From assembly GCA_007376195.1 (NCBI GenBank), contig VMFT01000009.1, positions 11,067 to 75,066 on the forward strand: 64,000 nucleotides of DNA, written 5' to 3'. The DNA is from Parcubacteria group bacterium Gr01-1014_29 (lineage in GTDB: Bacteria; Patescibacteriota; Minisyncoccia; Ryanbacterales; 2-02-FULL-48-12). Below, one piece after another: positions 27,001 through 30,000 of the stretch. Every line of letters begins with the position of its first letter. Positions within the stretch are counted from its first letter, which is position 1. The position numbers are program-made.

Positions 27001-30000
27001 TTTCTCTCCGCCCTTCCCACTTTAAATTTCTATTCAATTTGTGTTTCAAGTTTCAAGTTTCAAGTTTCAAAGTACTATTTGTCCATAAATCCATTTTTCC
27101 GTGGGATGTCGTATTCTTGATTCTCCTAAGCAGATTTTTATTAAGGAAGCGCTTGATTTATGATCTTGATGACGCGGAGTGGGAGCATTCTTTTTTGAAA
27201 ACATGGCTTTTCACAAAGATGGCGCATGCGGTTATATGCGGGTCGCATCCTATATTTGAATGGGTAAAACAACGCACGCCACGCGGCATATATGTTCCAA
27301 CGGCGGTTGATGCCGATTTGTATAAAATGTATTCGGTTGAACACAAAGAGCGCGCGGTTTTTACCATCGGCTGGGTTGGCGTGGGGCGGGGGCATTTCTT
27401 GGACGGGCACTTTGCCATGATTAAACCGGCGCTTGATGAACTTGTAAAAAAAGGTTATCAGTTCAGGTTTGTTATTATTGGCGCGCAGAAATACCAGCCG
27501 CTAAAAGATTATTTTCATGGGTCGAGTTTTGAGACGGTTTTTGTTGATGATTTGGATTGGTCGCGTCCCGAAAGTGTGCCAGAAGCCATTCACAAGTATC
27601 AGTTTGACATTGGTATTATGCCAACGTCGGATACGTCGTTTAACCGCGCAAAATGCGCGTTCAAAGCTATTGAATATATGGCATGCGGTGTGCCTCCGGT
27701 GGCATCGCCCGTAGGGGAGGCGACATATCTTATTGAAGATGGCATATCGGGTTTTCTTGCGGGCGACACAAACGAGTGGGTATTTGCACTTGAACGGTTA
27801 CTGCAGGATGTCGCTTTGCGCCACAGTATAGGCATGGAAGCACAACGGACAGTGAAAATCGGATATTCATATGATTATACGATTCCTCTCGTGTACGGGA
27901 TTCTTCAAGGAACCCATGCTACACTGAAACCATGAACATGTTTTTCTTTACTGCGGAATTATTGCAAAAACACATTGCGCGATATCGGGATTTGTATCGC
28001 GCCGCAGAGCCGTTTCCTCACGCGGTACTAGATGATTTCTTGCCAGTTTCTGTCGCAGACGAACTTGAGTCGTCTTTTCCGGGCCCAGGTGATATTGTCT
28101 GGAAAGATAAGACACACGAGCATAGCAAAAAGCTTGCTTCGAGCAAAGAAGAGGTTATGCCGCCCGCTATCCGCAATTTTTTACTGCAATGCAACTCTTC
28201 CACGTTTGTGACATTTCTTGAGGAGTTAACCGGCATAGAGCATCTTATTCCTGACCCGCATTATGAAGGTGGTGGCATGCACCAAATTGAGCGCGGTGGA
28301 TTTCTTGACGTGCACGCCGATTTTAACCAGCATCATATCTATAAACTTGATCGGCGGCTCAATTTATTGCTGTATCTGAATAAGGATTGGAACGAAGAGT
28401 ACGGGGGGCATCTTGAATTGTGGGAGCGCGACAAAAGTCGCTGTGTAAAAAAGGTTCTCCCCCTATTCAACCGGTGCGTACTATTTAGCACAAGCGATTT
28501 TTCATTTCATGGGCATCCAGTTCCTTTGCAATGCCCACTTGGGTGGACGCGAAAATCACTTGCGCTGTATTATTACACAAACGGCAGGCCTCCAGGCGAG
28601 ACAGCGGGTGTTTCGCACACGACTGCCTACGCCGATGGGCACGAACATGGAGCAAGTCGCGGACGCGGTTTTCGCTATTTTGCAAAGCGTCTCCTGCCAC
28701 CCATTGTGGCAGAGACAGTGCGCGGCATCAGAAAGTTGATGTAGGCGGATACTTATTGCAGAATAGTGCATATGTCAAGAATTGATTTTTTGCATATTTC
28801 TTGTATGCTGAATAACAGATTTGAAAAGAAAGGAATTAAACGATATGAGTCATTCAGAATGCTCCGTCCGGTATTGGGATCACTTGTCTGCGCGGGAGAT
28901 TGAACAAGCAGCATTGGAAGAACATTCATGTATTATTATCCCTATTGGCGTTATTGAAGCGCACGGGCCCCTATTGCCGGTTGGGTTTGATGCCATGATG
29001 GCAGGTGTTGTCGCTCATGTGGTCGCGGAACGTATCCAAAAGAGCGGCGCGCGGCCGGTCGTGTTTAATTGTGTGCCGTATAGCGGGATTGTGGGAGCAA
29101 CACAGGGACTCGCGGGAACAATCGGATATCCCGCCATGCTTTCAACGGAAATTCTTTTTGTGACGTTGCAATGGCTCTTCGCCCATGGATTTGAGCGTTT
29201 TTTTATTATCAATGGGGATGCAGGCACCGGGAAGAGTTTAATGTCGATTTTGTATCACGCAACAAAGGAGCGTCAGGAATTTTTCTTTGAGCGGGATGGC
29301 GCCATCTCGCTCTTTACCTGGTTTGATGGTATTGATAATGTCGGCCATGCAAGCGTGGTGGAACACGGATTCTATACCTATCTTTGCGAACACTCAGATC
29401 CGCATACCCGCAATGTTGCGTTCCAATTCGGGATTAAAACTCCTCTGAATGAAGAATGTCTCAAAGATCTTGATGGCGTTAAACGTGTCTACCCCAAACC
29501 GCGCCGGGAGTTTACCTCCTGGCTCTCAATAGAAGGCCAGAGTCGAGTATATGGTGTTTCTTATTTTTCATATGGGGAGTACCGAGCGTTCCTTGATTCC
29601 GGGCGGGTGCATCCGTTATGGGAACAACAGCTTACGCGTATTGTGCGCGATATACTCGGAATTCTGGATATGTAAGGGAGTAATAGTATGGGCATTGTAC
29701 GCATAGCGACAGAAGTTGACGTTCAATCTATTGATGAGGATCTCTATCCGCATCTTCACGACAACCATATTCCTTCAACGGAGTATATACAAAGAGTGGT
29801 TTGTTCACCCGATTATATTTTGGCGGTGGCAGATGAAGGGACACCTGAACGTCCCATTCTGGTTGGTGCGGCAACACTTCATATTATTATTCAGGCAGCG
29901 GCGGGGCTAAAAGGATATATAGATGATCTGGTAGTTATCTCATCAGAGCGGCGAAAAGGATATGGAGAACTGCTTTTTGAATATCTGGAAGATGTGGCGC

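Follow-up and report, generated by a model that had tools for sequence, protein, structure and literature searches.

Structure and coding context of the repeat tract

The window, the 64-kb stretch of DNA analysed here, contains a surface-glycan gene cluster of about 20 kb (positions 16794 to 36185), delimited by domain matches around a glycosyltransferase gene on the forward strand (26865 to 27935). The 356-aa product of this gene is identical to TSC79467.1 from Parcubacteria group bacterium Gr01-1014_29. It matched the Pfam families Glyco_trans_1_4 (52.1 bits, cut-off 27) and Glycos_transf_1 (35.9 bits, cut-off 26.4), and 329 homologs of the glycosyltransferase were found. The AlphaFold2 model (pLDDT 93.5, pTM 0.91) was compared with the PDB using Foldseek, where the top matches were MshA, HepE, BshA, PimA and PglA, with E-values from 1e-15 to 1e-13 and TM-scores of at most 0.78. 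On the strength of the Pfam domains and the modelled fold, the product is predicted to be a GT4-type glycosyltransferase with a GT-B fold.

The transferases of the cluster comprise a carbamoyltransferase, two PMT_2 membrane glycosyltransferases, three GT2 proteins, an FkbM methyltransferase, a GNAT protein and a sugar C-methyltransferase, and a GDSL hydrolase, epimerases and deoxysugar genes are also present. In the same operon and on the same strand, domain matches identified an RmlB-like NDP-sugar 4,6-dehydratase/epimerase gene (25245 to 26186) and, upstream of the glycosyltransferase gene, an RmlA-like nucleotidyltransferase gene (26224 to 26868). Downstream lies a forward-strand 2OG-Fe(II) oxygenase gene (27932 to 28744), whose ATG overlaps the glycosyltransferase stop codon in an ATGA. 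From this context we infer that the glycosyltransferase serves a surface structure, both the actual glycan and its location being presumed. A different assembly of this genome has a nucleotidyltransferase gene 96 nt longer than the one in the window.

A perfect (GTTTCAA)x4 tract occupies positions 27043 to 27070 of the forward strand, as seen in the sequence itself and with Tandem Repeats Finder (period 7, 4.0 copies, 100% matches, score 56), which bears out the four copies reported there in a preliminary description. Also as described, the tract lies some 180 bp into the open reading frame; it covers nt 179–206 of the gene (offset 178, codon phase 2), about 17% into the GT4 gene, and encodes residues 60–69, C60-F-K-F-Q-V-S-S-F-K69 (CFKFQVSSFK). 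All three forward frames are open through the tract, while all three reverse frames contain stops. The sequence TTTCAANTTTCAA occurs four times in the window compared with 0.04 times expected from shuffles, and a scan of the 64 kb for units of at least three bases in at least three copies returned this tract as the only perfect repeat. The tract is not a chance feature. Being uninterrupted, with a unit that is not a multiple of three, and lying inside ORF 26865–27935, it constitutes a simple-sequence-repeat locus.

Frameshifting by such a tract presupposes that it is translated, and the preliminary description had considered a true start further downstream. The GTG start of the glycosyltransferase gene overlaps the TGA stop of the nucleotidyltransferase gene in a GTGA (26865 to 26868, forward strand), which fixes the start upstream of the tract; at the locus of the ortholog P0012 (L001), ATGA takes the place of this GTGA. 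More than 100 homologs can be aligned to residues 1–60 with no gap, and S15, S16 and R19 in this stretch are invariant. The tract is thus translated and lies in conserved sequence.

Unit number and tract length in related lineages

We altered the number of units in silico. With one, four or seven units the gene stays in frame and encodes 349, 356 or 363 aa, whereas two, three, five and six units give products of 69, 82, 76 and 89 aa. The gain or loss of a single unit would therefore truncate the protein to 76–89 aa, as expected from the earlier prediction that such a change frameshifts the gene. Two forward-strand stops are responsible: a TAA at 27086 to 27088, met with two, five or eight units (69, 76 and 83 aa), and a TGA at 27118 to 27120, met with three or six units (82 and 89 aa), which closes the alternative-frame ORF 26983–27120. 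The protein alignment of the homologs has no length variation at the site of the tract. Given this, and since only one, four and seven units are in frame, a constant count of four in intact genes is to be expected.

The window's own lineage is on record in three contigs, from three assemblies, all with an identical protein and all with four units. Looking up the neighbouring genes from the window yielded no further contigs of this lineage. Scans of genome and metagenome contigs for (GTTTCAA)x3 returned, among the matches listed, contigs of unrelated taxa (Flavobacterium, Desulfonema, Pyrinomonadaceae and others), and tblastn found no copy of the window's glycosyltransferase among the listed contigs.

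A natural change in tract length was found in the lineage of another ortholog, P0013. Its tract reads GTTTCAA GCTTCAT GTTTCAA GCTTCAA and is thus a perfect 2x14 nt repeat. The tract-length polymorphism at this orthologous site separates nine of ten assemblies, which have the full 28 nt, from one (L250), which has exactly one 14-nt unit; the assemblies have no mismatches over 1062–3827 nt. The loss corresponds to two heptamers in a 2x14 array, not to a change of a single heptamer. It frameshifts the gene to a 96-aa stub, and the gene caller reported only the 270-aa C-terminal ORF. The L250 allele was read from the assembly consensus of a single sample. An invariant copy number across related genomes would have spoken against a switch, according to the preliminary description; among the relatives compared, however, one assembly out of ten that agree in all else lacks 14 nt.

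An N-terminal profile was used to look for other OFF-state stubs; it retrieved only five fragments, and an out-of-frame tail was present in none of them. The gene caller left the L250 stub uncalled, so the protein database probably lacks products of this kind. Three short homologs were considered as frameshift alleles and rejected: in P0036 the contig end cuts the gene, in P0108 a run of N interrupts it, and P0125 lies on a chimeric scaffold of 602 nt. Among cluster members of ten further homologs there was no convincing additional OFF allele, the short members lying on short contigs. Viral contigs contained only distant GT4 C-terminal domains, with at most 33% identity over long matches.

A conserved array with changing units

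The ortholog P0012 is 56% identical to the window's glycosyltransferase in amino acids and 60% in nucleotides, and it carries the same perfect (GTTTCAA)x4 at offset 178 and in the same phase. All 28 bases of the tract are identical, against 60% gene-wide. No other stretch of identical DNA in the two genes is as long, and the identity begins and ends with the tract, whose flanks are saturated at synonymous sites. Outside the tract, identical residues use the same codon in 44.6% of cases, compared with eight of eight within it (P = 1.6e-3); in the flanking codons 39–59, where the alignment was read by eye, about 6 of 15 identical residues share their codon, close to the background rate. At the protein level, no part of the N-terminal domain varies more than the tract region, and over residues 40–75 the window's overall closest relatives are only 30–36% identical. 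Protein constraint cannot explain the 28 identical bases in a region that is so variable among the closest relatives. The P0012 lineage comprises three contigs, which are identical and include no copy-number variant.

A short patch acquired recently by lateral transfer or gene conversion would explain why the window and P0012 share the tract, and it would fit another feature of this pair, namely that the two proteins are 75% identical over residues 40–75, where the closest relatives differ so strongly, and about 50% elsewhere. However, the identical run stops exactly at the tract borders and codons 39–59 share codons at the background rate, so a recently transferred patch would have had to span these 28 nt and no more. 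Unit turnover accounts for the divergence from close relatives without any transfer, and we consider such a patch highly improbable. A recombinant N-terminal segment had been suspected first and was dropped for unit turnover after the family-wide array signature emerged. Residues 39–59 are still somewhat odd after unit turnover was adopted as the reading.

Other lineages have arrays with different units. At the same offset, P0010 (L260) reads GCTATAA GCTACAA GCTACAA CCTGCAA, with a lag-7 score of 18/21 that is the best in the whole gene and exceeds all 2000 codon shuffles. The lag-7 signal at the tract is the gene maximum in four of five orthologs, and the units of one array resemble each other more than they resemble those of other arrays. 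Beyond the four lineages with DNA, the family-wide signature was traced in protein sequences. Residues 62 and 69, which are 21 nt apart, are identical in 34 of 112 homologs against 14.4 expected, the largest identity excess among all pairs at lags 1–14, with K, A, E, N and S as the matched states. Residues 61–69 agree with the three-frame translation of a perfect heptamer array at no fewer than seven of nine positions in 22 of 81 homologs and at all nine in six, although the homologs are kin and these counts, like those for the residue pair, overstate the independent events. Control windows of nine residues reached at least seven of nine in 0.1% of cases and nine of nine in none of 10,965. At least eight different units are implied, including GTTTCAA, CTTACAA, ACTACAA, GTTACTC, AATACGA, GATACAA and ATTACGC. 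Within the P0002 cluster, two of the three variable residues fall in the last unit (YK vs HQ).

Array signatures with differing units indicate that repetitiveness is conserved and sequence is not, which points to concerted evolution through repeated slippage. By these comparisons, repetitiveness has been kept beyond neutral expectation.

The same pattern bears on two further explanations. A nucleotide-level cis element in the coding sequence, whether a site bound by a protein, an internal promoter, an RNA structure or the like, might explain why 28 nt are identical in two diverged orthologs, third codon positions included. Yet no promoter-like site was found within 26700–27400, RNA structure at the tract did not exceed shuffled controls (z = -1.2) and no Rfam family matched there. 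Moreover, the unit sequence varies by lineage while period, copy number and position are kept, the opposite of a sequence-specific site, and an explanation of this sort is scarcely credible. The tract could also be an inert relic of an old duplication, too short to slip meaningfully, with protein constraint and shared codon preference behind the identity of the two lineages. A tract of only four units, intact genes of equal length at the site and the absence of variation among the window lineage's three contigs would all fit this. It is nevertheless quite improbable given that the identical bases lie in the most variable N-terminal part, that the 14-nt loss in otherwise identical DNA falls exactly at the tract, and that arrays with different units recur across the family.

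A candidate frameshift switch

We suggest, with a probability of roughly 0.6, that the tract is a hypermutable frameshift switch, or contingency locus, in a surface-glycan glycosyltransferase. This reading of the tract as slippage-prone is favoured because distant relatives keep an array at the same spot and because one relative lost two units, which broke the gene. The preliminary description had likewise proposed a candidate slipped-strand frameshift switch, a proposal that is strengthened here, although all three contigs of the window's own lineage have four units. During replication, the four identical heptamers would mispair out of register, and a unit would be gained or lost. Seven not being a multiple of three, translation would run into a stop 16–50 nt downstream, leaving 76–89 residues and no enzyme. 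An OFF frameshift would uncouple translation of the 2OG-Fe(II) oxygenase gene, so that a polar effect is possible, and expression of translationally coupled downstream genes may drop. A second slip would restore four units and the enzyme. As four units alone would give a protein of homolog length, intact genes would always have four. A point mutation in one unit would either be lost or spread through the array by cycles of contraction and expansion, and such cycles would keep the array pure within a lineage while its unit sequence drifts between lineages. A useful slippage rate in this genome and reversibility are presumed, as is the maintenance of mutability by selection, for example for phage escape or varied attachment to host cells. 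Frequent, reversible switching would draw indirect support from the concerted evolution of the units.

Several observations count against a switch: the three contigs of the window's lineage and the three of the P0012 lineage include no copy-number variant, the one variant allele is a 14-nt loss in an assembled consensus, four units are few beside classical tracts, and this is the single such repeat in 64 kb, where classical phase-variable organisms have many.

The tract may instead be a mutational hotspot with no adaptive role, homogenised by slippage faster than it is degraded, with alleles of other than four units purged and the OFF state a plain loss of function. That the only variant is a single loss allele in one of ten assemblies, and that one such tract exists in 64 kb, would agree with this. 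However, interrupting substitutions, many of them silent or conservative in a variable loop, should erode such an array, whereas many lineages retain arrays, differing in their unit, that are perfect or nearly so. For a new unit to spread through the array, out-of-frame intermediates would also have to be viable. In addition, prokaryotes normally avoid highly mutable coding repeats (PMC3315296), so the persistence of the tract needs explaining. We regard a purely mutational hotspot as unlikely. A wider form of the switch hypothesis, which we hold only tentatively and at somewhat less than even odds, is that of an ancient contingency locus maintained by selection, in which a four-unit frameshifting repeat has stayed at one codon position of the family across Parcubacteria (Ryanbacteria and relatives), in proteins about 50% identical, its units turning over by concerted evolution.

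Nearly all known cases of repeat-driven phase variation come from host-adapted pathogens. The LPS glycosyltransferase genes of Haemophilus influenzae include lic2A, lgtC and lex2A, and there is a 5'-CCAA-associated putative glycosyltransferase. Like the gene in the window, these LPS genes have a non-triplet tandem repeat in the 5' part of the ORF, where slippage frameshifts the gene on and off (PMC2651432). Their tracts have 4-nt units, usually in 8–16 or more copies, and vary freely between strains, while the tract in the window has a 7-nt unit in exactly four copies, in a protein with no length tolerance at the site. The organism also differs, being an uncultivated environmental (groundwater) Parcubacterium and not a host-adapted pathogen.

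Heptameric repeats in glycosyltransferase genes had been called established contingency loci in the preliminary description, a loose statement. The heptanucleotides of H. influenzae are (TGAAAGA)n upstream of hmw1A and hmw2A, (AATTTTG)14 inside hmw1A, and (AACAACC)n near or in TonB-dependent receptor genes, and the glycosyltransferase cases of phase variation are tetranucleotide repeats (PMC2651432). These heptanucleotide tracts resemble the present one in unit length, and the intragenic ones also frameshift their ORF when copy number changes (PMC2651432); however, they run to 6–38 copies and are found in adhesin genes, receptor genes or promoters, none in a glycosyltransferase. The statement that four copies are low for slippage stands in comparison with classical tracts, but H. 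influenzae hsdM makes it less of a concern: going from four units to three in its (GACGA)4 tract switches the gene off, and the rates reported are the same as for tracts of far greater length (PMC2651432, citing Zaleski et al. 2005). Both are short, four-unit, non-triplet coding repeats, although the hsdM unit is a pentamer in a restriction-modification gene whose switching was shown experimentally, whereas the tract in the window is known from its sequence alone.

In Campylobacter jejuni, poly-G tracts in capsule and LOS modification genes are likewise hypermutable repeats that switch surface-glycan enzymes, and they alter phage susceptibility (PMC8437040, PMC8224891). Those tracts are homopolymers at many loci per genome, as opposed to a single heptamer array in 64 kb. 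Our literature search found no paper linking repeat-driven phase variation to Patescibacteria or the CPR, the only related case being a Gracilibacterium gene in which a 9-mer (PTD) repeat drives hypervariation in a CPR genome (PMC6851277). The 9-mer is a multiple of three and changes protein length in frame, with no on/off frameshift switch. Repeat contingency loci are an already known kind of locus; by that search, Patescibacteria would be a new group to carry one.

If the tract switches, CPR bacteria would vary a surface glycan stochastically, which bears on phage evasion or on how tiny episymbionts modulate attachment to their hosts. Were the locus ancient as well, these episymbiotic, uncultivated bacteria would long have had on/off variation of a surface glycan as part of their biology, and the locus would be the first case of repeat-based phase variation to be described in the Candidate Phyla Radiation. 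The family pattern is unusual in that many lineages share position, period and copy number but not the unit sequence, and it clearly exemplifies how selection, or a mutational process, preserves repetitiveness itself rather than sequence. The three-frame heptamer translation provides a protein-level signature with which such loci could be sought elsewhere.

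The repeat tract and its glycosyltransferase gene

The preliminary description had placed four perfect copies of a heptamer inside a glycosyltransferase ORF. The sequence at positions 27043-27070 (tgt GTTTCAA GTTTCAA GTTTCAA GTTTCAA agt) and Tandem Repeats Finder (period 7, 4.0 copies, 100% matches) both confirmed this. Four occurrences of the motif TTTCAANTTTCAA were counted in the window, where shuffles predict 0.04. A scan of the 64 kb for perfect repeats found no second tract with a unit of at least three bases and at least three copies; the remaining perfect repeats were A8 or T8 runs and one (CG)6.

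The ORF (26865-27935, + strand) encodes 356 aa with Pfam matches to Glyco_trans_1_4 (52 bits) and Glycos_transf_1 (36 bits). Its product is identical to TSC79467.1, a "putative glycosyl transferase" of Parcubacteria group bacterium Gr01-1014_29, and has 329 database relatives, most of them in Patescibacteria and Candidatus Ryanbacteria. An AlphaFold2 model (pLDDT 93.5) has a GT-B fold, with the GT4 enzymes MshA, HepE, BshA and PimA as best PDB matches. The tract starts at gene offset 178, 17% into the gene, and is read in frame from C60 to K69 (C60 FKFQVSSFK69), as had been proposed. In the N-terminal domain, this segment runs from the last part of helix 50-64 through a short loop into the beginning of strand 68-74. 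On the reverse strand, every frame through the tract is interrupted by stops. A true start downstream of the tract, previously raised as a possible objection, is excluded because the gene's GTG start shares bases with the TGA stop of the nucleotidyltransferase gene before it and residues 1-60 align without gaps across the family, with S15, S16 and R19 invariant. At the 3' end, the gene's stop codon and the start codon of the following gene overlap as ATGA.

Unit gain or loss shifts the reading frame in silico, in agreement with the earlier claim. Products with 2, 3, 5 and 6 units are 69, 82, 76 and 89 aa long and end at TAA 27086-27088 or TGA 27118-27120, while the frame is kept with 1, 4 or 7 units. 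Since length at the tract site varies only in distant members of the family alignment, four units is the expected ON state, with the frame intact.

The gene lies in a glycan cluster of roughly 20 kb, which holds RmlA-like and RmlB-like genes, two PMT_2 membrane glycosyltransferases, three GT2 enzymes, a carbamoyltransferase, methyltransferases, a GNAT and epimerases. The RmlA-like nucleotidyltransferase gene, which adjoins the glycosyltransferase upstream, is 96 bases longer in ENA ERZ27284378 k139_312969, a different assembly of this genome; the additional bases are in frame and encode 32 aa (GRGHAGHFLDLLGSGKDFGINLSYEVQEEAGG). The insert falls at window 26396/26397 (L246 1437-1532), the rest being identical, and the window's protein lacks Pfam profile positions ~48-86. 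Either a strain-level deletion or an assembly error would account for the difference. The same cluster contains an imperfect heptamer array at 18618-18655 (AAACCTG AAACGTA AAGCCTG AAACATG AAACCTA, 70% matches), which takes up the 25-nt spacer separating the carbamoyltransferase gene from the next ORF, starting at 18643.

Recurrence and length variation of the tract

A distant ortholog, P0012 (contig L001, GCA_005239605.1), shares 56% protein and 60% DNA identity with the window gene; its upstream neighbour is not the one found in the window but a second GT4 gene. At 6179-6206 of L001 lies a perfect (GTTTCAA)x4 with matching offset and phase. The two genes share no identical run longer than these 28 nt, and the run stops exactly at the tract borders. 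Outside the tract, 44.6% of identical residues share codons; given this background, the eight codons shared within it have P = 1.6e-3, a value that does not count the nine identical residues in what is the domain's most variable part. A recent patch transfer between the two lineages seems unlikely, as the codons flanking the tract show ordinary synonymous divergence.

All three contigs of the window lineage have four units, as do all three of the P0012 lineage, which are 100% identical to each other. In P0013 (contig L004; 54% identical to the window protein) the tract reads GTTTCAA GCTTCAT GTTTCAA GCTTCAA, a perfect 2x14-nt repeat once the two preceding bases are counted. The cluster of P0013 (90% identity) includes a 270-aa member, P0127, whose contig, L250, has a single 14-nt gap relative to L004 and is otherwise identical over 3827 aligned bases. 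Another eight assemblies of the P0013 lineage, belonging to different sample accessions, have the 28-nt form with no mismatch over the 1062-nt gene. The ten assemblies thus show a single polymorphism, one of them having lost one repeat unit at the tract. This puts its gene out of frame: the N-terminal reading ends after 96 aa, and the gene caller finds only the C-terminal part. In this assembled consensus, the loss is the change that slipped-strand mispairing would predict.

A 602-nt scaffold, L259 (ENA ERZ28564339 scaffold_378247), has unrelated sequence joined to the glycosyltransferase inside the last tract unit (positions 115-135, …ccaaca/AGCTTCAAGATT…), with a switch downstream to a tRNA-synthetase-like ORF. 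It is probably a chimeric low-coverage assembly.

Heptamer arrays across the family

Arrays with other units occupy the same position. P0010 (contig L260; 60% identical) has GCTATAA GCTACAA GCTACAA CCTGCAA at offset 178. Its lag-7 self-identity (DNA shifted by 7 nt) is 18/21, the best window in the gene and above all 2000 codon shuffles. The top lag-7 window also lies at the tract position in the window gene, L001 and L004, and heptamer units are more alike within arrays than between them.

Among 112 aligned full-length homologs, residues 62 and 69, 21 nt or three units apart, are identical in 34 against 14.4 expected, the largest excess among all column pairs at lags 1-14; the matched states are K, A, E, N and S. 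Residues 61-69 of each homolog were set against the three-frame translations of all possible perfect heptamer arrays. Among the 81 homologs without gaps, 22 matched at 7/9 residues or better, 13 at 8/9 or better and six at 9/9. The corresponding rates in other 9-residue windows of the same proteins were 0.1%, 0.009% and 0/10,965. Full matches imply the units GTTTCAA (FKFQVSSFK), CTTACAA (YNLQLTTYN), ACTACAA (YKLQTTNYK) and GTTACTC (YSLLVTRYS), and 8/9 matches add AATACGA, GATACAA and ATTACGC. For most lineages this analysis is at the protein level, and the sequences are phylogenetically related. Among near-identical Ryanbacteria proteins, P0002 and P0131 differ from P0129, P0130 and P0132 at three residues, two of them adjacent and in the last tract unit (DTQYK vs DTQHQ).

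As far as sequence comparison can tell, period, copy number and position of the array are conserved across lineages and unit sequence is not. This argues against the tract being a sequence-specific cis element. Searches at the tract found no promoter-like site, no RNA structure above shuffles (z = -1.2) and no Rfam match. The same pattern favours repeated cycles in which a mutated unit would spread through the array or be lost from it, passing through out-of-frame states as the array is homogenised. The array thus appears to be ancient and evolving in concert. Unit turnover also explains the low identity, only 30-36%, between the window and its closest relatives over residues 40-75.

Just 5' of the tract, residues 39-59 (26979-27041) are ~71% identical to P0012 and only ~38% to the window's overall closest relatives, and their DNA is saturated at synonymous sites. 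Unit turnover accounts for residues 60-69, not for this flank, where old recombination or a rate difference is possible.

Known contingency loci and other heptamer arrays

The P0012 tract, the L250 loss and the family arrays considerably strengthen the initial reading of the tract as a candidate contingency locus. Mechanistically, the comparisons support a putative phase-variation switch of the classical coding-repeat type. Likenesses are found in the tetranucleotide tracts of Haemophilus influenzae LPS glycosyltransferase genes, the four-unit, high-rate (GACGA)4 of its hsdM, and its heptanucleotide tracts in or near hmw and TonB-receptor genes (PMC2651432), as well as in the poly-G tracts of Campylobacter glycan genes (PMC8437040). 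Three features set the tract apart from those systems: it belongs to an uncultivated Parcubacterium from groundwater, its copy number is short and fixed, and the array is conserved to unusual depth. According to Lin and Kussell, coding repeats of the highest mutability are as a rule avoided, and repeat enrichment near N-termini marks phase variation (PMC3315296). Literature searches found no comparable report on phase variation in Patescibacteria, CPR or Saccharibacteria; the nearest CPR case is a hypervariable Gracilibacterium gene with a 9-mer, an in-frame repeat (PMC6851277).

Other heptamer arrays occur in the window. Two 30-nt AT-rich arrays of an ATTTCAA-like heptamer (45057-45086 and 45361-45390) form an inverted repeat whose arms are 90% complementary and lie 274 nt apart. 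A small ORF between them starts at 45126, after a TGCTATAAT-like -10 element, and is followed by a stretch resembling the opening 14 codons of a PIN-type toxin gene (VRFCLDTDILIDPY, then stop), truncated at the second array. A further AT-rich array at 59306-59359, with periods 7 and 21 (AAATTTC and related units) and small palindromes, occupies the short spacer upstream of an ORF starting near 59365. Its unit is related to those of the 45-kb arrays.

Runs of (GTTTCAA) are widespread in unrelated phyla, with 3-13 copies among the matches listed from genome and metagenome scans (L005-L243). Their carriers in that list include many Flavobacterium species, Desulfonema magnum, Pyrinomonadaceae and Verrucomicrobia. 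Most of the listed tracts appear to be non-coding, since 180 of 260 lie in open spans of <150 codons, and some adjoin their own reverse complement.
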